Shown here piece after piece: positions 17,744 to 26,769 of a DNA stretch of 64,000 bases; the stretch's first letter is position 1; the number at the start of each line of letters is the position of its first letter. Both the position numbers and the translations under genes were made by a program. The stretch lies in the NCBI GenBank assembly GCA_031429575.1, contig JANOZW010000254.1, forward strand, positions 9,640-73,639, in the 5' to 3' direction. A model generated the notes under the pieces. The model saw only the letters and a program-made list of their open reading frames with translations, had not been told where the DNA came from and did no database searches. This DNA comes from Ferruginibacter sp. GTDB taxonomy: Bacteria; Bacteroidota; Bacteroidia; Chitinophagales; Chitinophagaceae.

Positions 17744-19801
17744 TTAATAATTCACCAATCGCTCCACCATTTCTCCCAACCTTCCATAAGCCATAAAGTT
17801 TTTTTCAAGCTCTATACTAAATGGAATAGGGGTATCCAAACTTGCGCAACGCATAACAGGAGCATCTAATTTATCAAAACAATTTTCGCCAATCCATGCG
17901 GCTATTTCGCCGCCAATGCCACCAGTGAGGGAATCTTCGTGCAATATTAAAACCTTACCCGTTTTTTCTGTAACCATTTTTATGGCATCAAAATCTAATG
18001 GCAATAATGTTCTCAAATCTAATATCTCTATACTAATATCCTTATTTTTTTCTGCATACTCTATTGCCCAATGTACACCTGCACCATACGTAATTATGCT
18101 TATGTCATCGCCATGCTGTACATATCTTGCTTTACCAATTTCTATTTCATAATACTCATCTGGCACTTGCCCACTCACACTTCTATACAAAGCTTTATGC
18201 TCAAAAAACAATACAGGGTTAGGGTCATTAATAGCTGCTATCATTAATCCTTTTGCATCTTCGGGTGTGCTTGGATAAACCACTTTTAACCCCGGCGTAT
18301 GCACAAACCAAGCCTCATTGCTCTGGCTATGAAATGGCCCTGCGCCTACACCGCCGCCCGTTGGCATGCGTATAACTACATCGGCCCCTTGCCCCCAGCG
18401 GTAATGTATTTTAGCCAAATTATTTATTATTTGATTAAAGCCTACGGTTGCAAAATCTGCAAATTGCATTTCCATTACTGCTTTAAAACCTTCCAAACTT
18501 AACCCTAACGCACTGCCTACAATGGCGCTCTCACACAAGGGTGTATTGCGTACTCTATCTTTGCCAAACAATTCTACAAAACCTTCTGTTACTTTAAATG
18601 CGCCACCATACTCTGCAATATCTTGTCCCATTAAAATTAAATTCTCATGTTTTTGCATGGATTGTTTTAGGGCGTCGGAAATGCCGTTGATGAATTTTTT
18701 TTCTGTTTCGTTTCTCGTTTCTCGTATCTCGTTTGGTTCGTTTCTTGTTTCTCGTTTCTCGTTGAGTGATACTTTGGAGTTATCATAAACCGTTGTTGTC
18801 TGTTGTCTGAGGTCTGTCGTCTTTTTTGCATAAACATCTCCAATTTCCTCTGTCGTATTCGCTACAATTTTATTTGCCTTATACGCTTCGGCTAGTTCTG
18901 TTTCTATATACGTTTTGGTATCAGCTTTTATTTTTTCTATTGCTTCCGCAGTTAAATGTTCTTCATCAAGCAACCAAGCTTCATAATTTTTCACAGGATC
19001 TTTCTTTTCCCATTCGCTAAATAATTCTGGAGGTACATATTTTACACCGCTGGCTTCTTCGTGCCCACGCATGCGAAACGTCATACACTCTATTAAATAT
19101 GGTTTTTGATTTTTTATACAATATTCTCGAATGCCTTTTATGGTGTCATACACTTCCAGTAAATTATTACCATCAATGCGAACACCTTCCATGCCGTAAC
19201 CTTTTGCTTTGTCCACCAAACTTTCGCAGCGGTATTGTTCATTTACTGGTGTACTCAATCCATATCCGTTATTTTCTATTACAAATATTACTGGCAAATC
19301 CCACACGGCTGCTGTGTTTAATGCTTCATGAAAATCACCTTCGCTTGTACCACCATCTCCAGTAAAAGCAAGTGATACTTTTTGTTGTTTTTTTAATTTA
19401 TATGCAAGCGCTACACCATCAGCAATGGCTAATTGTGGGCCAAGATGAGAAATCATTCCGCAAATGTGATGTTCTTTACTACCAAAATGAAAACTACGCT
19501 CACGCCCTTTGCTATAACCTTCTTTATTGCCTTGCCATTGCATAAATAATTTACTTAGTGGCATATTACGACCTGTAAACACACCTAGGTTTCTATGTAA
19601 CGGCATTATCCATTCATTTTGTTGCATGGCGGCTGTAACACCTACCGATATTGCCTCCTGCCCAATACCGCTAAACCATTTAGATATTTTTCCTTGGCGT
19701 AACAACACGAGCATTTTTTCCTCTATCATGCGGGGCAGCAAAATAGATTTATACAATGCTATAAGTTTTTCTGGCGATAATCCTTTTTGTAAAAAATTCA
19801 T
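17744..19801 (-). CDS. 2-oxoacid (2-oxoisovalerate-type) dehydrogenase E1, fused alpha/beta
   Basis: TPP motif GDGGTSEGDFHEALN, FRMRGHEE, GQDIAEYGG, FHSQ; ATG 19801 preferred because the track extension to 19909 translates a repeat array. Confidence 0.9.
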   Translation of the reverse strand: MNFLQKGLSPEKLIALYKSILLPRMIEEKMLVLLRQGKISKWFSGIGQEAISVGVTAAMQQNEWIMPLHRNLGVFTGRNMPLSKLFMQWQGNKEGYSKGRERSFHFGSKEHHICGMISHLGPQLAIADGVALAYKLKKQQKVSLAFTGDGGTSEGDFHEALNTAAVWDLPVIFVIENNGYGLSTPVNEQYRCESLVDKAKGYGMEGVRIDGNNLLEVYDTIKGIREYCIKNQKPYLIECMTFRMRGHEEASGVKYVPPELFSEWEKKDPVKNYEAWLLDEEHLTAEAIEKIKADTKTYIETELAEAYKANKIVANTTEEIGDVYAKKTTDLRQQTTTVYDNSKVSLNEKRETRNEPNEIRETRNETEKKFINGISDALKQSMQKHENLILMGQDIAEYGGAFKVTEGFVELFGKDRVRNTPLCESAIVGSALGLSLEGFKAVMEMQFADFATVGFNQIINNLAKIHYRWGQGADVVIRMPTGGGVGAGPFHSQSNEAWFVHTPGLKVVYPSTPEDAKGLMIAAINDPNPVLFFEHKALYRSVSGQVPDEYYEIEIGKARYVQHGDDISIITYGAGVHWAIEYAEKNKDISIEILDLRTLLPLDFDAIKMVTEKTGKVLILHEDSLTGGIGGEIAAWIGENCFDKLDAPVMRCASLDTPIPFSIELEKNFMAYGRLGEMVERLVNY
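18704..18821. repeat. Two 7-mer arrays (TTTCTCG-like; TGTTGTC-like) in-frame in the E1 alpha/beta linker
   Basis: TTTCTCG TTTCTCG TATCTCG tttggttcg TTTCTTG TTTCTCG TTTCTCG (18711-18761); TGTTGTC TGTTGTC TGAGGTC TGTCGTC (18794-18821). Confidence 0.85.
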
Positions 19802-19818
19802 AATGCGAAGATAGGAAA

Positions 19819-19853
19819 GTTCAAGGTTCAAGGTTGAAGGTTCAAGGTTCAGG
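19819..19853. repeat. 7-mer array (GTTCAAG) x5 just upstream of the E1 start
   Basis: GTTCAAG GTTCAAG GTTGAAG GTTCAAG GTTCAGG. Confidence 0.85.
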
Positions 19854-19980
19854 TAACAAAATTCGTACCCATCCTTTAAGAAATTATTTATTACTTTTAA
19901 ATAAATCATTGGTTATAAAAAACATTCTATTTTCCAATTAAACTAATTGTTTAATTTGTTTGAACTATAAAATAATCTAC

Positions 19981-20654: not shown

Positions 20655-20918
20655 TTAATAGCTTATGCCTACACCACAAGTTAAAAATCCAAGCAAGAGC
20701 AAGAGTCCACCACTCATTAAAAAACCTTGTGCATAGCGTTTATCTTCTGCCATTAATAAAAATAAACCTACTACTAGCGCAATGAGCCCACCCACAAGAA
20801 ATACCAAACCTACAACTATTGATAATTCGCTTATAATATTTTGTGTGATTGTATAGATTACTGAAAATAAAATTGCACCTGCAAGATTTATTAAAATGAT
20901 TTTTACTGGTAGTTTCAT
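20655..20918 (-). CDS. 87-aa membrane peptide C with C-terminal TM-Cys motif
   Basis: Three hydrophobic segments; ends KRYAQGFLMSGGLLLLLGFLTC-GVGISY; 4-nt gap from the upstream gene. Confidence 0.8.
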   Translation of the reverse strand: MKLPVKIILINLAGAILFSVIYTITQNIISELSIVVGLVFLVGGLIALVVGLFLLMAEDKRYAQGFLMSGGLLLLLGFLTCGVGISY

Positions 20919-20922
20919 ATAT

Positions 20923-21186
20923 CTAAATTTTTACTTGGTACATAGAACAAATACTAAGACCAATAACCAAAGAAATACCTGCACTCATTAATAACCCCTT
21001 GCCTATATTTCGAGTGCTTAAAAAAATACACAAAATTATACCAACAAATAAATATAAAACAGAGAGCAATAAACCAGATAAGCCAACCATGGCTAACTGC
21101 TCTGTGCTATTATAAAAAAATACTCCTGCCCCAATGATAGCATAAGTTATTAAACAAAATATTAGGGTGTTTTTAAAATCTTTCAT
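20923..21186 (-). CDS. 87-aa membrane peptide B with C-terminal TM-Cys motif
   Basis: Ends RNIGKGLLMSAGISLVIGLSIC-SMYQVKI. Confidence 0.8.
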   Translation of the reverse strand: MKDFKNTLIFCLITYAIIGAGVFFYNSTEQLAMVGLSGLLLSVLYLFVGIILCIFLSTRNIGKGLLMSAGISLVIGLSICSMYQVKI

Positions 21187-21198
21187 TTAACAATTGTT

Positions 21199-21405
21199 TT
21201 AATGCCCACCACCAAAACTCATATTACTGCACATTGAAAACCCAATTACTACAAACACACCAAATAGCAATATCCCTCCCAGCAAAAATCTCAATCCTAC
21301 TTTTCGTTTCTGTTCATCGCTGCTGCACATTTTTACAATACCCATTATTACAAATATTAATGGCAACACAACTACAATAAATAATAATGCTATTAACGCT
21401 TCCAT
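21199..21405 (-). CDS. 68-aa membrane peptide A with C-terminal TM-Cys motif
   Basis: Ends KRKVGLRFLLGGILLFGVFVVIGFSMC-SNMSFGGGH; 9 nt after the rSAM stop. Confidence 0.8.
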   Translation of the reverse strand: MEALIALLFIVVVLPLIFVIMGIVKMCSSDEQKRKVGLRFLLGGILLFGVFVVIGFSMCSNMSFGGGH

Positions 21406-21414
21406 AATTATTTT

Positions 21415-22821
21415 TTACACAGGTAAACTTTCTCTTTCGGCCTGCAATATTTTTAAATACGCTTCCTTATCATCTCTATAAAAAAGATTCATGGTTTCAA
21501 AAGGTATGATGCGCCCATCCTTATGTACAATGTGTACGCAACTTTTTTTAATGGCTCGTACATCAAAATCATATGCATCTATAAAACGCATAATTATTAT
21601 ACGAAATAAATTTTCGTAGCCTAAACCTGGAGCTTCTATTTGTGGCAAACAACAAAGCAATTGTTTCATATTTTCTTCTACCCTATCTACAGAAATACCT
21701 GTGCTAAAAATATCAATCATTTTTTCTTTTAGCGCATCGTCTTGCTCATAAATAATGGTGTTGCGGCTATTGTCTAATAAATGGGTTGGATCAATATAGC
21801 GTGTAAGGGGAAAAGTTTGTCCTGATAATTTTAATGCATAACCCATCACCAAAGCATCTGGGTTACAAGGTACAGGCAACAAATCATTTGGTTTAAAAAT
21901 ATTGGTTTGTTCTAGTATTTTTCTGCGCACATCTGTTAGCGTAATCCTATCTGTAGCAGGGTTAAAGTTTTCTGTACGACCTGCTACTTGTGTAGGCTGA
22001 AACGTAACACCTCTTACACACTTTTGTTTGAGTGCAAATTCAATTATCTTTCCTATTTCATCATCATTTACTCCTTGCTGCAATGTTACTACCAATGTTG
22101 TTGAAAGATTTAATGCATTCAAATGTTCCAATGCTTTCATTCTTGTTTCAGTTAAATCTTTACCACGCAATTGCTCTAATGCAGATGATTTAAAGGAATC
22201 AAATTGCAAATAAATTTCAAAGTCGGGCGCATAAGTAGCTAGTTGCTTTGTAAACTCAAAATCTTTTGCGATTCTTATTCCATTTGTATTAAGCATTAAA
22301 TGCTTTATCGGTTTCTTTTTTGCAATATCCATTATGGCAAAAAAATCTGGATGCACCGTAGGTTCTCCTCCACTTATTTGTACTACATCTGGCGAACCTT
22401 CTGCAGCTACAATTATATCGAGCATTTTTTCTACTTCTTCCACCGTTCTGTGTCTTCCATAATGTGGGCTACTCATGGCATAGCAAGTAGGGCAAGCAAG
22501 GTTGCACCTATCTGTAATTTCAATAACCGTAAGGCAACTGTGCTGCTCATGATCTTGGCAAAGCCCACAATCGTACGGGCAACCATAATGTGTTTTTGTG
22601 GTAAAATGCAATGGCGTTTCCGAAGGCTTATTATAATTACGAATGTTTTTATAATACTCAATATCGGTTGCAATCAACACTTTTTCAAAGCCATGTTCAC
22701 GACATGTTTTAAGCATATACACATTGTCGTTTTCAAAAACAATTTTAGCATCTACACGTCGTAGGCATGTGCTACAAATACTTAGTGTAAAATCGTAATA
22801 GGTGTAGGGGCGGTTAGGCAT
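21415..22821 (-). CDS. Radical SAM enzyme, Tes/GDGT-MAS (MJ0619, COG1964)-like
   Basis: N-terminal CSTC...CREH, GCPYDCGLCQDH, rSAM CNLACPTC, ISGGEPTVH, C-terminal SCVH...GRIIPF; ATG 22821 overlaps the lgt-like stop. Confidence 0.8.
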   Translation of the reverse strand: MPNRPYTYYDFTLSICSTCLRRVDAKIVFENDNVYMLKTCREHGFEKVLIATDIEYYKNIRNYNKPSETPLHFTTKTHYGCPYDCGLCQDHEQHSCLTVIEITDRCNLACPTCYAMSSPHYGRHRTVEEVEKMLDIIVAAEGSPDVVQISGGEPTVHPDFFAIMDIAKKKPIKHLMLNTNGIRIAKDFEFTKQLATYAPDFEIYLQFDSFKSSALEQLRGKDLTETRMKALEHLNALNLSTTLVVTLQQGVNDDEIGKIIEFALKQKCVRGVTFQPTQVAGRTENFNPATDRITLTDVRRKILEQTNIFKPNDLLPVPCNPDALVMGYALKLSGQTFPLTRYIDPTHLLDNSRNTIIYEQDDALKEKMIDIFSTGISVDRVEENMKQLLCCLPQIEAPGLGYENLFRIIIMRFIDAYDFDVRAIKKSCVHIVHKDGRIIPFETMNLFYRDDKEAYLKILQAERESLPV

Positions 22822-23569
22822 TTGCTTGCAATAGTTTTTTGGGTTGAAGTATATATTTATAATAATAAATAAAACCAATAATTGAAGTTAGTTGAATTGT
22901 AGATAACCCAACTAAAACAGTGTAAGAAGGTTTGATAAATTCTTGTGAAAATCTATATACACAATACGCAATCATAAATATTTTAAACCTTGCACCTTCG
23001 GCTAATGTATATTTTTTTCCTATTTGCCTAAGACCAATCCAAAGTATTAAAAGGAATATAATTTCATATAAACTTACAGGATGACGCAGTAAACCATCAC
23101 CCAAATTCATTCCTGTAAAAAATGTTGTAACCTTGCCATACGTTTCTTCATACACGCCCATACTAAAACATCCGATGCGCCCGATGATAAGCGCTAATAT
23201 AATTGGATACGTAAACAAATCGCCACTGTTTCGTTTTTCTCCAATGATTTTTTTAATGAGTTCTACGCCAAATAATCCTCCTAAAAAACCACCCAATACT
23301 GTTTTATTACTATAGATGTATAGCAAAATATTTTTGGTGAGAAATAACTCATAGGGTCTTTCTAGTGAGCCTACCAGCCTACTTCCTATTAGTGAACCAA
23401 AAATAGCACCTATCAAAATCCATAGTCTATTTTCAGTTTTTATACTGTCGCCCTGCTTCTTTTTGAGAAAAATAAAATATCGAAAACCAATAAAAAATGC
23501 CAGCACTTCTGTAATAGCATGAAGTGGTAAGGTATTATTGCCAAAAGAAATTCCTATGGGGAAATGCAT
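22814..23569 (-). CDS. Prolipoprotein diacylglyceryl transferase (Lgt) family paralog
   Basis: Multi-TM; KTVLGGFLGG, GRIGCF, RHPVSLYE, YRFSQEFIK; ATG 23569 (MHFP) preferred. Confidence 0.85.
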   Translation of the reverse strand: MHFPIGISFGNNTLPLHAITEVLAFFIGFRYFIFLKKKQGDSIKTENRLWILIGAIFGSLIGSRLVGSLERPYELFLTKNILLYIYSNKTVLGGFLGGLFGVELIKKIIGEKRNSGDLFTYPIILALIIGRIGCFSMGVYEETYGKVTTFFTGMNLGDGLLRHPVSLYEIIFLLILWIGLRQIGKKYTLAEGARFKIFMIAYCVYRFSQEFIKPSYTVLVGLSTIQLTSIIGFIYYYKYILQPKKLLQANA

Positions 23570-23583
23570 TTTTAAAAATTTAA

Positions 23584-24237
23584 CTATTGCTTTACCCAAA
23601 TGATACCACCAGGGTTTCTTTCATAAGAAATAATGCCATTATTTTTTGCAAGTATAAATTTATATACACCAGCTTTTTTATTTACAAACGTATCTCTACT
23701 AATTATTTGAACAGTTGGGTAAGAGTTTCCAGCTACATTATAATTAGAAAAATTTTGGACTGTTGCATTTATGCCATCACCATCACTAAAACTAACTTTA
23801 TCAAAGCCGTTTTCTATTATGCCTACTCCTGAAATATTGTTTTGGTATAAATAAATAGAAACATTTCTACCAACATCTGTGGAATAAACGGCTTGTGATA
23901 CAGATAACATAACATTAAATATTGAACGCCCTGAAGAATCTGTTTTAGTACTTCTGAGCGCTTTTACAGCTTCACAAGATCCTGTAGTACTTTTTACTTG
24001 ATACTCTGACGTAGAATCTGTTAACCTAAGATTAAAAGTATCATATGCATTGGTACTATTCTTAAAAATTAATTTTTGATTACTTTTATATGGAAACCAG
24101 CTATCTAGTAACGCATCATTATATCCACCACATGGTACTGTTTTAGAGCAAGTGCTTTCACAAGAATATATAGAAAGTATAAAGGGGCATAGTATCATAA
24201 ATATTATACTTTTTTTATTGATATTTATTTTATACAT
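23584..24237 (-). CDS. Putative lipoprotein, hypothetical
   Basis: Hydrophobic N-terminus with lipobox-like SIYS-C, then ESTCSKTVPC. Confidence 0.7.
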   Translation of the reverse strand: MYKININKKSIIFMILCPFILSIYSCESTCSKTVPCGGYNDALLDSWFPYKSNQKLIFKNSTNAYDTFNLRLTDSTSEYQVKSTTGSCEAVKALRSTKTDSSGRSIFNVMLSVSQAVYSTDVGRNVSIYLYQNNISGVGIIENGFDKVSFSDGDGINATVQNFSNYNVAGNSYPTVQIISRDTFVNKKAGVYKFILAKNNGIISYERNPGGIIWVKQ

Positions 24238-24303: not shown

Positions 24304-24329
24304 CAAAAAAGCCAAGCCTTTCGGCTTGG
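24304..24329 (-). terminator. Intrinsic terminator of the ECF operon
   Basis: Minus strand GCCAAGCC-GAAA-GGCTTGGC-TTTTTT. Confidence 0.85.
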
Positions 24330-24352
24330 CGATACCAAATTCAAAAAAATAT

Positions 24353-25402
24353 TTACCGAAATTTTATTGATCCATAATCATTATTGATACTAATTTTTGC
24401 GGTACCATTTCCTATTTTCGCTTCGTGCTTTTTGGTAAAATTGCAGCATCCATCTTCATCATCATCTTTATCTGTTTTTATTTCTAGTGCTTTGTTTTTA
24501 CTCTTTACATTACCGTAAGAAGAATTAATCATAAAACTTGCATTGGCCCTTTCGTCCACGGTTATTTCCATAGTAGAGTACCCGTTTGTCATTTTCACAT
24601 TGCCAATATCTTTACCAAAACCTAATGTAATATCGCTACTATAATCAAAGTGCATTTCGCCATTTCCATTTATGGTTGCTATATCACAATTGCCATAGCC
24701 AATTTTAAAATCAGGATTGATCAACGATTTTATATCAGCATTGCCATACTCAATAGCTATTTCATTAGATTCGCTGCTTAAAACTCCTGCAGATAAATTA
24801 CCATACTCGTTTACAATATCGAGCGCTCCAGCAAAATCATCAATATTTGTATTTCCAAATTCGTTACGTAGTTTCATCTTTGTAGAAGATGGCAAATAAA
24901 CAGTATAATTTATTCTCATCGATTGTGAATTGCCATTATAAGAATAATTATAGTTATCATCACAATCGCACTTTTCATTACTCTTACTACTTTTAGATGT
25001 AGTTGTAGAAATTGTTTTAGAAATGGAAGCCCCATTGCCGTTATCATCATAGTGAACACTATTGCCACCGCCATAAGACTGGTCTATTACTGTTTTAAAA
25101 CTAACCAATCCGTCATTTTTACTATGTTTTATAACAATACCATCTATTATTTTTACGGCTTTTGCTTCTGTTCTAGCACTTACTTCTATTTCAATATCTA
25201 CTTTTATTTTATTCTCCGCCCAAGTGTTTATTTTAATATCGCCAAACTTATTACTAAGCGATACTTTATCGCTACCACTTAGTTCATATGTTTGTGTAAT
25301 ATTTTTCTTTTTTTCTACGTCGGTTTTATTGCTGGCATTTTGCGCACTTGCATTATTACCTGCTATAAGCAACATCAGTACTAGTTTAAATATTGTTTTC
25401 AT
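24353..25402 (-). CDS. Secreted DUF4097/adhesin-like beta-repeat protein
   Basis: MKTIFK signal peptide; repeated xxNxYGxxxI motifs (NKFGDI, NEFGNT, NEYGNL, SSYGNV, NDYGSI). Confidence 0.75.
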   Translation of the reverse strand: MKTIFKLVLMLLIAGNNASAQNASNKTDVEKKKNITQTYELSGSDKVSLSNKFGDIKINTWAENKIKVDIEIEVSARTEAKAVKIIDGIVIKHSKNDGLVSFKTVIDQSYGGGNSVHYDDNGNGASISKTISTTTSKSSKSNEKCDCDDNYNYSYNGNSQSMRINYTVYLPSSTKMKLRNEFGNTNIDDFAGALDIVNEYGNLSAGVLSSESNEIAIEYGNADIKSLINPDFKIGYGNCDIATINGNGEMHFDYSSDITLGFGKDIGNVKMTNGYSTMEITVDERANASFMINSSYGNVKSKNKALEIKTDKDDDEDGCCNFTKKHEAKIGNGTAKISINNDYGSIKFR

Positions 25403-26111
25403 AATCCTTCTTTTTTTTGATTGTTTCAATCTTGTTTAAAATAATTAATTGTTTATTTAGCAAATCGATTTGTACTTGTAGGTTATAAATCATAGCATTT
25501 ATTAAGGCCGATTTATTGTTTGTATTGGGCAATTGTTTGTTAAGCTGCTTATACGTTTGGTTTAATTCAGCTATGTCTTCTGAAAAGTTTTTATATACCT
25601 CGGGGTCATTTTTAGCAAGCTTTTTAATTTCGTTTCCTTTATAAGTAATCAGTTTAGCAAAGTGTGTTTTACTCTCATTAAAAGCAAGCATTTCTTCATC
25701 TTCAACTATGTATTTCGATGGCTTTTGCTTTTCTTCGGTATTTTCTAAAGACTGTTTTGCAATAAATTTTTCTTCTTTATTTACTGGATCGTTAATGTTA
25801 TTTTTAGGTGTATCTATTGTTATTAAAGCTTTAGTGTCTTTTTGCTCATCAGATTGTTTTACAATATTTGGTTGTGCAGGCTCTGTATTTTTTTGATTAA
25901 AGAAAAATATACCGCCTCCAATTAACAAAATCACCGAAGCAGCTGCTACCCACTTATACATATTTATTTTTCGTACCGCAGCTTTTTGGTGCAACTGTAC
26001 ATTATTTACTTTCAAATCAGCCTCTAGTTTATTCCACAGCTTTTCAGATGGTTTATAATCATTAAACGCATCTTTATTTTGCTTCATAAAATTTTCAAGG
26101 TTCTTACTCAT
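25386..26111 (-). CDS. Probable anti-sigma factor (single TM, C-terminal coiled coil)
   Basis: LENFMKQNKDAFNDYKPSEKLWNKLE N-terminus, TM helix, directly downstream of an ECF sigma. Confidence 0.7.
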   Translation of the reverse strand: MSKNLENFMKQNKDAFNDYKPSEKLWNKLEADLKVNNVQLHQKAAVRKINMYKWVAAASVILLIGGGIFFFNQKNTEPAQPNIVKQSDEQKDTKALITIDTPKNNINDPVNKEEKFIAKQSLENTEEKQKPSKYIVEDEEMLAFNESKTHFAKLITYKGNEIKKLAKNDPEVYKNFSEDIAELNQTYKQLNKQLPNTNNKSALINAMIYNLQVQIDLLNKQLIILNKIETIKKKKDYENNI

Positions 26112-26157
26112 TGTTTTTTATTTAGCCAAAACATCTCTAAAAATTATTCTTTTTTTA

Positions 26158-26196
26158 CCTCACCTTTAATTCCTCTCTCCCGCAAAAAAGCGGGAC
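26158..26196 (-). repeat. REP-like hairpin with GGTGAGG tail
   Basis: TCCCGC-AAAAAA-GCGGGA stem; minus-strand tail AAAGGTGAGG resembles the copies at 39478 and 40110. Confidence 0.5.
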
Positions 26197-26220
26197 AAGC
26201 CGGAGCGCAAAAGGTAACTT

Positions 26221-26769
26221 TTAGAGATGTTTTAAAATTTGTAATAATTTTTGTTTTGCTCGCATATATTGTGTACGTGTGGTGCTGGTGGCTACGTGCA
26301 TTATCTCTGCTATTTCTTCGTGGTCGTAGCCTTCTAGCAAATACAAACTCAATACCGTTCTATATCCATCTGGCAATTGCTGTATTGCCGCTTTTACCTC
26401 TTCTACTTTGTATATAATCTCTTCCTCGTTTATCGTATCTTCCTCCATCAAATTTTCTGTTACTACTTTATCAATATCAATCAAATTGAGTTTTTTCTTT
26501 CTTAAATGATTAATACTTTTATTTATTACAATCGTTTTTAACCAGCCTCCAAAAGTACTCTCATAGCTAAATGTTTTTAGGTTATTAAACGCATCCATAA
26601 AACTATCTTGCAATACATCTTCTGCCTCGGCAAAATGATTTACAATTCTATAACAAGTGCTAAACATGGCTTTGCAATACCGCTGATACAATTCGCTATA
26701 GGCTTTCATTTCGCCTTGCAAACATTGTTTTACCAATTCATCTGTATGTATAGTGGCAGTTAGCTGCAA
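26221..26769 (-). CDS. ECF RNA polymerase sigma-70 factor
   Basis: AEDVLQDSF, FGGWLKTIVIN, LPDGYRTVLSLYLLEGYDHEEIA; TTG start. Confidence 0.92.
   Translation of the reverse strand: MQLTATIHTDELVKQCLQGEMKAYSELYQRYCKAMFSTCYRIVNHFAEAEDVLQDSFMDAFNNLKTFSYESTFGGWLKTIVINKSINHLRKKKLNLIDIDKVVTENLMEEDTINEEEIIYKVEEVKAAIQQLPDGYRTVLSLYLLEGYDHEEIAEIMHVATSTTRTQYMRAKQKLLQILKHL

Follow-up and report, generated by a model that had tools for sequence, protein, structure and literature searches.

The window analyzed here, a stretch of 64,000 nucleotides from a Ferruginibacter sp. assembly (GCA_031429575.1, contig JANOZW010000254.1, positions 9,640 to 73,639), carries at 20655-24237 of its minus strand a compact cassette whose core recurs across bacterial phyla. 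This core consists of a divergent paralog of the diacylglyceryl transferase Lgt, an enzyme of the radical S-adenosylmethionine (SAM) type resembling the lipid-coupling enzyme Tes (GDGT-MAS), and one to four small membrane proteins ending in a lipobox-like Cys motif and a short tail. We propose that the paralog would attach diacylglycerol to the Cys through a thioether and that the radical SAM enzyme would then join the lipid tails, giving a microprotein held by a macrocyclic or membrane-spanning lipid anchor, a reading that its sequence features make quite possible without making it probable. Full-text searches of open-access papers and bioRxiv returned no published link of an Lgt paralog to a Tes-like radical SAM enzyme or to such microproteins, and no description of the module, in keeping with an earlier sequence-only reading of this DNA that knew of no characterised example of such a logic. 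The nearest published concept is that of a ribosomally made, post-translationally modified peptide (RiPP) that borrows the housekeeping lipoprotein pathway (PMC12636315).

A three-part core kept across phyla

The interval holds six co-oriented, closely packed genes with successive gaps of 14, -8, 9, 12, and 4 nt, exactly as the sequence-only reading had listed them, once the starts of the Lgt paralog (MHFPIG) and of the radical SAM gene (MPNRPYTYYD) are set by agreement among homologues. That reading had described the six genes under one candidate system, and here it has to be amended. The first gene (23584-24237) encodes a predicted lipoprotein of 217 amino acids (aa), with a signal peptide ending in ...LSIYSC followed by a CxxCx5C motif, which matched no Pfam or NCBIfam family. 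Its homologues, with 29 to 45% identity, were limited to about 20 of the 80 close loci, belonging to some close Chitinophagaceae relatives, and the gene was absent from the 17-kb neighborhoods of 20 diverse genomes. This lack of conservation rules it out as a component; it is a lineage-specific neighbor outside the core, and the system is therefore made of three kinds of parts and not of six genes. Clustering of the open reading frames (ORFs) in the same 17-kb neighborhoods left the paralog, the radical SAM gene, and a small ORF as the only ones that these genomes share. In the window, the paralog (ca. 251 aa) occupies 22814-23569, within the ORF 22814-23599 and starting at the homologue-supported ATG at 23569. 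The radical SAM gene (468 aa) lies at 21415-22821, within the ORF 21415-22878 with its supported ATG at 22821, and overlaps the paralog gene by 8 nt. They are followed by three small genes, pepA, pepB, and pepC.

Among 301 Bacteroidota species genomes, the radical SAM gene was detected in 26 and the paralog in 25, with both in 24, one genome having the paralog only and two a distant radical SAM gene only, a near-perfect co-occurrence. Their distribution was patchy (20 of 143 genera, and two of the four genomes within one genus). All 15 Bacteroidota carriers checked had two or three LGT-family genes per genome, compared with one in each of the five non-carriers checked, and a separate housekeeping lgt was kept in all 20 carrier genomes checked. 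One extra LGT-family gene was also present in Acidobacteriota, Paenibacillus, Heyndrickxia, a spirochaete, and a planctomycete. In scans of species genomes, the order Lgt paralog, radical SAM gene, small protein(s), which is that of the window and is designated Form A, appeared in Ferruginibacter, Niabella, Segetibacter, Flavobacterium, Mucilaginibacter, and Pedobacter, as well as in Paenibacillus, Neobacillus, Heyndrickxia, Brevibacillus, many Acidobacteriota, Spirochaetia, and Phycisphaerales, with radical SAM enzymes 57 to 100% identical to that of the window. The names carried by near-identical proteins also put the source of the window within Chitinophagaceae, close to Ferruginibacter. 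Several carriers are available in culture, among them Ferruginibacter paludis, Niabella, Segetibacter aerophilus, several species of Flavobacterium and Mucilaginibacter, Paenibacillus lautus, P. glycanilyticus, Heyndrickxia, and Neobacillus.

A rearranged form (loci L123, L124, and L130-L143; e.g., L131:102-3700) is a five-part cassette in the order radical SAM gene, ICMT-family methyltransferase (PF04140, 49 bits), DUF4395 membrane protein whose tail reads GxCP…CC, Lgt paralog, and small transmembrane (TM)-Cys protein. Its radical SAM enzyme is ca. 40% identical to that of the window. The hosts were labeled as candidate phyla radiation (CPR) bacteria, DPANN archaeal metagenome-assembled genomes (MAGs), Elusimicrobia, Desulfobulbaceae, Ignavibacteria, Chlorobaculum, and rumen Bacilli, labels that may be wrong for MAGs, the DPANN and CPR ones especially. 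Two cassettes from MAGs labeled Woesearchaeota and Pacearchaeota (L134 and L137) included an Lgt-family gene, for which mis-binning is possible; a third contig labeled “archaeon” (L133) was too short to show an Lgt gene. According to recent literature (PMC12462473), archaea have no known homologue of Lgt.

The small proteins, described in the sequence-only reading as Cys-tailed membrane peptides, do have this architecture, with a hydrophobic helix, then a Cys, and then a short tail in each of the three. PepA (21199-21405, 68 aa) has two helices and ends in ...VIGFSMC-SNMSFGGGH, with Cys59 encoded at 21229-21231. PepB (20923-21186) and PepC (20655-20918), both of 87 aa and with three helices, end in ...VIGLSIC-SMYQVKI (Cys80, codon 20947-20949) and ...LLGFLTC-GVGISY (Cys81, codon 20676-20678). 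Orthologues of pepA with the same motif lie directly 3' of the radical SAM gene in relatives. Applying a simple hydrophobicity rule (a helix, then a Cys near the C-terminus), we found at least one co-oriented TM-Cys small ORF next to the radical SAM gene in 150 of 171 usable related loci, against a background rate of 3.1% per small ORF elsewhere in those loci. The arrangement is thus far beyond chance and is kept across phyla; a lack of conservation of these genes had been named beforehand as the result that would count against the system. Most of the 21 loci scored as lacking such an ORF belong to the rearranged form, whose small gene lies further downstream, outside the search window. The number of copies per locus was one in 96 loci, two in 40, three in 10, and four in two.

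A Cys-anchored profile of 208 distinct sequences read L(-7) L(-6) [ILV](-5) G(-4) [FLY](-3) [SGA](-2) [IVA](-1) C [SG](+1), in which the sole invariant residue is the Cys, in a lipobox-like context. The tails beyond it mostly have 2 to 12 residues and are not conserved, and the 20 residues before the helix contain on average 2.5 K/R versus 0.9 D/E. In 32% of the small proteins the sequence ends in His (…NFH, …GGH, …MH), 5 to 10 residues past the Cys, most commonly in Chitinophagaceae (PepA and its orthologues, L029-L108). The small proteins fail the canonical criterion for lipoprotein precursors, that is, an N-terminal signal peptide ending in a lipobox [LVI][ASTVI][GAS]C and followed by a mature domain, since the motif sits at the C-terminal helix and position -1 is mostly I, V, or A; the Bacillales versions, with near-canonical lipoboxes (LNAAC, FTAC, VSAC), do fit the consensus. 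In Terriglobia/Acidoferrales (L210-L235; e.g., L210:2737-3135 and L222:2960-3489), the small gene lies between the paralog and the radical SAM gene and encodes a first helix, a lipobox-like Cys (…LLAGSSC…), a loop, and a second helix. As the Cys here follows the first helix, what is constant is its position at the outer end of a predicted N-in/C-out helix, which is the geometry of an Lgt acceptor.

The two enzymes are linked by more than position. Pairwise identities of the radical SAM enzymes and of the neighboring paralogs at 55 loci were correlated (Spearman rho 0.85, none of 999 permutations as high), part of which reflects shared species history, and the two enzymes co-evolve. In close relatives, the radical SAM enzyme was 89 to 96% identical, the paralog 60 to 76%, and the small proteins 30 to 70%. 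In a maximum-likelihood tree of 49 Lgt-family proteins, the paralogs linked to a radical SAM gene fell on one side of a branch with 100/100 support and the housekeeping Lgts, those encoded in the same genomes among them, on the other; within this tree the Form A paralogs made up one group (support 100/99). A profile search with the paralogs against 1.84 billion proteins gave 613 cluster representatives at E <= 1e-30, and 10,595 Lgt relatives in all at E <= 1e-10. One of the representatives, P0148 (733 aa), is a predicted fusion in which an Ala/Pro-rich linker joins LGT, the HMPTM zinc ribbon, and Radical_SAM, called as a single gene on a 3-kb metagenome contig; it is a single case in which a sequencing frameshift is possible. 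The C-terminus of Lgt is cytoplasmic, and such a fusion would therefore put the radical SAM domain at the inner face of the membrane next to the transferase. A 716-aa open frame from an acidobacterium that had looked like such a fusion was discarded, because paralog and radical SAM gene are read in different frames and the length of the open frame comes from a stretch of high-GC DNA free of stop codons.

The possibility that all this is fortuitous, with small ORFs that are not genes and two unrelated enzymes that happen to be neighbors, is barely credible. It is ruled out by the comparative data, namely the conservation of order and motif across phyla, the co-occurrence of the enzymes, the dedicated clade of paralogs, and the fusion.

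The Lgt paralog and the radical SAM enzyme

The assignment of the first enzyme to the Lgt family stands, with a Pfam LGT (PF01790) score of 71.8 bits over residues 15 to 245 against a cut-off of 24.9, while it falls well below the equivalog model for housekeeping lgt (TIGR00544; 28.4 bits, cut-off 118.9, NCBIfam). A separate canonical lgt, whose presence the sequence-only reading had proposed to confirm, was found on another contig of the same genome (G000:C186:12555-13493, 107.9 bits), leaving the paralog as a second, dedicated copy. A sequence search of the paralog against the PDB gave no match, so that profile and fold comparisons were needed. Its profile aligned to E. coli Lgt with hhalign at 98.5% probability over 215 columns, lacking ca. 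23 residues of the periplasmic head. The AlphaFold2 model (pLDDT 93.7) found E. coli Lgt (5AZB) as its sole significant Foldseek match in the PDB (E 4.3e-7, probability 1.00) and has the seven-helix Lgt fold.

With E. coli numbering, Form A paralogs and the distant L027 keep G142-R143, G145, H196-P197, E202, Y235, R239, and E/D243, with R246 replaced by K. Among all aligned paralogs with an ORF that covers these positions, the residues of the catalytic center are either invariant or replaced conservatively. In the rearranged form, G142-R143 and G145 are retained by those ORFs that are complete in the locus, which two of them are not. Throughout Form A, Y26 is changed to H, Y30 to E, and H103 to L, M, or V; the rearranged-form paralogs retain Tyr at Y26. 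For E. coli Lgt, R143, R239, and E243 have been assigned to catalysis and the HGGL region to binding of the acceptor (PMC4728403). Retained catalytic residues together with a changed HGGL region fit a kept chemistry with a different acceptor. On these residues and the fold, the paralog looks active and is a putative diacylglyceryl transferase for the small proteins.

Compared with the E. coli enzyme (5AZB/5AZC), which catalyzes the first step of the Lgt-LspA-Lnt pathway, the paralog shares the fold, the family, and residues R143, R239, E243, Y235, and E202, and its presumed acceptor is likewise a Cys preceded by a hydrophobic N-in/C-out helix and small residues. It differs in forming its own clade and in the truncated head and altered Y26, Y30, and H103. 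The cassette acceptors would be private microproteins with the Cys after the last helix or the first of two, instead of the N-terminal signal peptide of a large secreted protein, and the cassette encodes no LspA or Lnt partner.

Among the other members of the paralog subfamily, some have long C-terminal extensions, such as P0269 (955 aa) with HEAT repeats, and P0195 and P0258 (ca. 465 aa); of the extended proteins, only P0148 carries a radical SAM domain. A Chitinophagaceae paralog of the type linked to the radical SAM enzyme (L126, G035:C10:163730-164443; 39% identity) has neither a radical SAM gene nor an obvious TM-Cys neighbor and may be a remnant or have a different use.

For the second enzyme, the only Pfam domains above threshold were Zn_ribbon_HMPTM and Radical_SAM, with a sub-threshold Fer4_12 match inside the core, and the best NCBIfam matches were TrsS (NF045646; 330.7 bits, cut-off 490) and Tes (NF045702; 286.6 bits, cut-off 450). 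This agrees with its earlier description as Tes/GDGT-MAS-like and, judged by these scores, makes it a member of the Tes/TrsS superfamily that belongs to neither curated family. It aligned along its full length with GDGT-MAS (PDB 7TOL, E 2.3e-64, query residues 11 to 457 to chain residues 24 to 505). Compared with the motifs described for Tes (PMC9433317), it keeps the rubredoxin site CX2CX20CX2H, the N-terminal cluster site CX3CX2C plus His, and the radical SAM motif CX3CX2C, that is, three of the four metal sites of Tes. The Cys residues of these sites show no change in Form A or in the rearranged form (24 of the 26 sequences aligned, the two differing ones being distant outliers). At the C-terminal cluster site, the equivalent of Met439 is kept, the adjoining Cys and the later Cys of PFC are replaced, and four other Cys are invariant in the family (C319, C390, C391, and C428), so that this site, judged by the alignment, appears to differ from the one probably used by Tes. 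With its retained metal sites and full-length alignment to GDGT-MAS, the enzyme looks active. No SPASM domain or RiPP recognition element (RRE) was found beside the core with Pfam and NCBIfam, the matches of SPASM-maturase models covering the core only (residues ca. 110 to 300) and lying far below their cut-offs. There was no in-frame TGA or selenocysteine in the gene; in the relative L025, a supposed in-frame TGA turned out to be the stop codon, which excludes selenocysteine there as well.

The kinship with Tes/GDGT-MAS (MJ0619, 7TOL/7TOM) thus extends over the full length, three metal sites, and the Met439 equivalent. The enzymes differ in score, in the pattern of C-terminal Cys, and in the host, here a bacterium with ester lipids. 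In Tes, it is at the C-terminal [4Fe-4S] cluster that the labile Met439 marks the site of the C-S intermediate. As far as is known, Tes works alone, on free phospholipids, whereas the window-type radical SAM enzyme is always paired with the Lgt paralog and Cys microproteins. The papers on Tes (PMC9433317, PMC8941075) mention no partner protein.

A proposed protein-lipidation pathway and its alternatives

In the pathway that we favor, PepA, PepB, and PepC would insert in the cytoplasmic membrane with the last helix N-in/C-out, like a lipoprotein signal peptide, as their charge distribution suggests, so that the invariant Cys would come to lie at the helix's outer end, at the outer leaflet. The paralog, to judge by its catalytic residues and fold, would move diacylglyceryl from a phospholipid, probably phosphatidylglycerol, to the thiol, leaving a thioether-linked lipid on the Cys. 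The radical SAM enzyme, at the cytoplasmic face and beside the paralog or bound to it, may then abstract a hydrogen at the far end of an acyl chain and couple this chain to a second one, as the homology to GDGT-MAS and the natural fusion suggest. The product would be a microprotein with a macrocyclic or membrane-spanning lipid anchor, for which the small proteins would serve as stoichiometric substrates, in the fashion of precursor peptides. A thioether cannot be a transient carrier; the small proteins would therefore be consumed, and their multiplicity and fast divergence are as expected of substrates. The main hosts, Bacteroidota, Bacillales, and Acidobacteriota, are rich in iso-branched fatty acids. 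Zeng et al. consider iso-branched tail ends structurally identical to phytanyl ends (PMC8941075). The wider proposition, that this is an unrecognised protein-lipidation pathway of many bacterial phyla in which a cousin of Tes joins the far ends of acyl chains into a protein-anchored macrocyclic or membrane-spanning lipid, is possible and, on balance, somewhat doubtful.

Several observations weigh against this pathway. The residue at -1 to the Cys is bulky (I/V) in Bacteroidota, unlike the canonical lipobox. Two acceptor-side residues of Lgt, Y26 and H103 of the HGGL motif, which are essential in the E. coli enzyme, are changed in the paralog; the genome's own housekeeping Lgt likewise lacks H103 (Y instead). 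The radical SAM enzyme is under the curated cut-offs for both Tes and TrsS, and with two C-terminal Cys replaced, one of them beside Met439, and four others invariant, its chemistry may differ from C-C coupling. With the enzyme in the cytoplasm and the Cys predicted at the outer face, the lipid tails would have to be reached through the bilayer. Finally, Flavobacterium, Chitinophagaceae, and Paenibacillus are not known to contain ester lipids that are macrocyclic or span the membrane.

The state of the C-terminal site leads to an alternative in which the paralog still lipidates the Cys and the radical SAM enzyme performs some other reaction without coupling tails end to end, such as linking lipid and protein by a C-S or C-C bond, oxidizing the glyceryl-thioether region, or methylation. 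The loss of the Cys by Met439 and of the PFC Cys, the four new invariant Cys, and the score under the Tes cut-off all speak for it. So do the ICMT-family methyltransferase and DUF4395 protein added in the rearranged form, which hint at tailoring near the lipidated Cys. We nevertheless consider it rather unlikely, given that the homology to GDGT-MAS includes the C-terminal domain and the Met439 equivalent and that the RRE and SPASM domains that would bind a peptide are missing. The ICMT-family gene also recalls, by analogy only, the CaaX processing of eukaryotes (prenyl transferase, -aaX protease, ICMT), in which, as is proposed here, a Cys only a few positions from the C-terminus carries a thioether-linked lipid. 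The parallel with the methyltransferase does not extend to the window's form, which has none. CaaX processing differs further in the family of the lipid transferase, in the lipid, and in having a protease, of which the cassette has none; members of the ICMT family also methylate other substrates.

A different view is that the radical SAM enzyme and the paralog make free membrane-spanning lipids, precursors of the iso-diabolic acid type or of glycerol dialkyl glycerol tetraethers of the branched type (brGDGTs), with the small proteins as unlipidated structural or anchoring elements. Taxa that carry the cassette are rich in iso-C15:0 fatty acids, with tail ends that resemble those of phytanyl chains. 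Bacterial Tes homologues, known since 2022, have been proposed, so far unverified, as synthases of brGDGTs and iso-diabolic acid (PMC8941075), and they are used to infer the sources of brGDGT palaeoclimate biomarkers (PMC8941075, PMC11868695). The presence of the cassette in Acidobacteriota would agree with this, as would the absence of Mss, a membrane-spanning lipid synthase, from the Acidobacteria that make iso-diabolic acid (PMC13159169). In our view, the free-lipid role is nonetheless unlikely. The acceptor of the Lgt family is a Cys thiol, and a lipobox-like Cys is precisely what the small proteins have kept, while their multiple copies and rapid evolution are unlike those of a fixed subunit. 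Moreover, Form A was found in only 14 of 251 Acidobacteriota genomes, so that the cassette is not a general explanation for iso-diabolic acid. Together with the occurrence of Tes homologues in only 3 of 14 producers of this acid (PMC13159169), this rules out a role as its general synthase in Acidobacteria.

Mss, described from Thermotoga and Clostridia, also belongs to the radical SAM enzymes; coupling of fatty-acyl tails has been proposed or shown for it, and it is relevant to the biosynthesis of both iso-diabolic acid and brGDGTs (PMC13159169). By the description of its authors, it is a separate radical SAM family of anaerobes, with no Lgt partner or microprotein reported (PMC13159169).

Signal peptidase II raises another alternative, a RiPP-like lipopeptide in which the radical SAM enzyme modifies the peptide, the paralog lipidates the Cys, and the peptidase, cleaving ahead of the Cys, frees a short lipopeptide made of diacylglyceryl-Cys and the tail, which would be the active product. 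Several small genes per locus, hypervariable tails, and the Bacillales motifs, which fit a cleavable lipobox, would suit it. There is also a precedent in DybA, a hybrid of RiPP and lipoprotein (PMC12636315), likewise a small ribosomal peptide with S-diacylglyceryl on a lipobox Cys and enzymatic tailoring. DybA differs in using the housekeeping Lgt/LspA/Lnt and no dedicated Lgt, a canonical N-terminal lipoprotein signal, and an MNIO enzyme that acts on the peptide. For the cassette this route seems quite improbable. The tails are unconserved and only 2 to 12 residues long, a second transmembrane helix takes the place of the “tail” in Terriglobia, and the I/V at -1 in Bacteroidota is poor for signal peptidase II; the radical SAM enzyme belongs to the Tes type, which binds lipid, and lacks a domain for peptide recognition.

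Whatever the reaction, a large and well-conserved subset of the bacterial Tes homologues is tied to an Lgt paralog and Cys microproteins, which alters the substrate that has to be tested for them. If the favored pathway is true, it would be a new kind of lipidation, in which a dedicated Lgt acts on a private set of substrates and radical chemistry then tailors the lipid, and its products a new class of ribosomally encoded lipoconjugates. A large part of the bacterial Tes homologues that are still unexplained would thereby gain a function. The lipid would remain with the protein fraction and be missed when lipids are extracted in the ordinary way. In Acidobacteria, iso-diabolic acid is freed by hydrolysis only and not by Bligh-Dyer extraction, which is how a protein-bound cross-linked lipid would behave, and the cassette would thus be one testable source of this hydrolysis-only fraction.

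Operon boundaries and neighboring genes

The 5' boundary of the operon is a hairpin at 24311-24330 (minus strand), similar to an intrinsic terminator, with an 8-bp stem that includes six G-C pairs and a T-run after it, which ends the upstream gene. At the other end, a convergent gene terminates 8 nt past pepC. Rfam gave no match to riboswitches or other known RNA families in the operon region or upstream of it, and matches to sigma-70-type promoters were fewer than in shuffled sequence, a comparison that is uninformative for a Bacteroidota genome. Beyond the terminator, three minus-strand genes (24353-26769) encode an extracytoplasmic function (ECF)-type sigma factor (26221-26769), an anti-sigma-like single-pass protein (25386-26111), and a secreted repeat protein of 358 aa (24353-25429), a trio that is not conserved next to the cassette in diverse relatives. 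Elsewhere in the window, a minus-strand gene at 17744-19909 encodes a 2-oxoacid dehydrogenase with fused E1 alpha and beta subunits, in which the linker (ca. 18700-18820) is made of repeated RETRNE-like units (NEKRETRNEPNEIRETRNETEKK).

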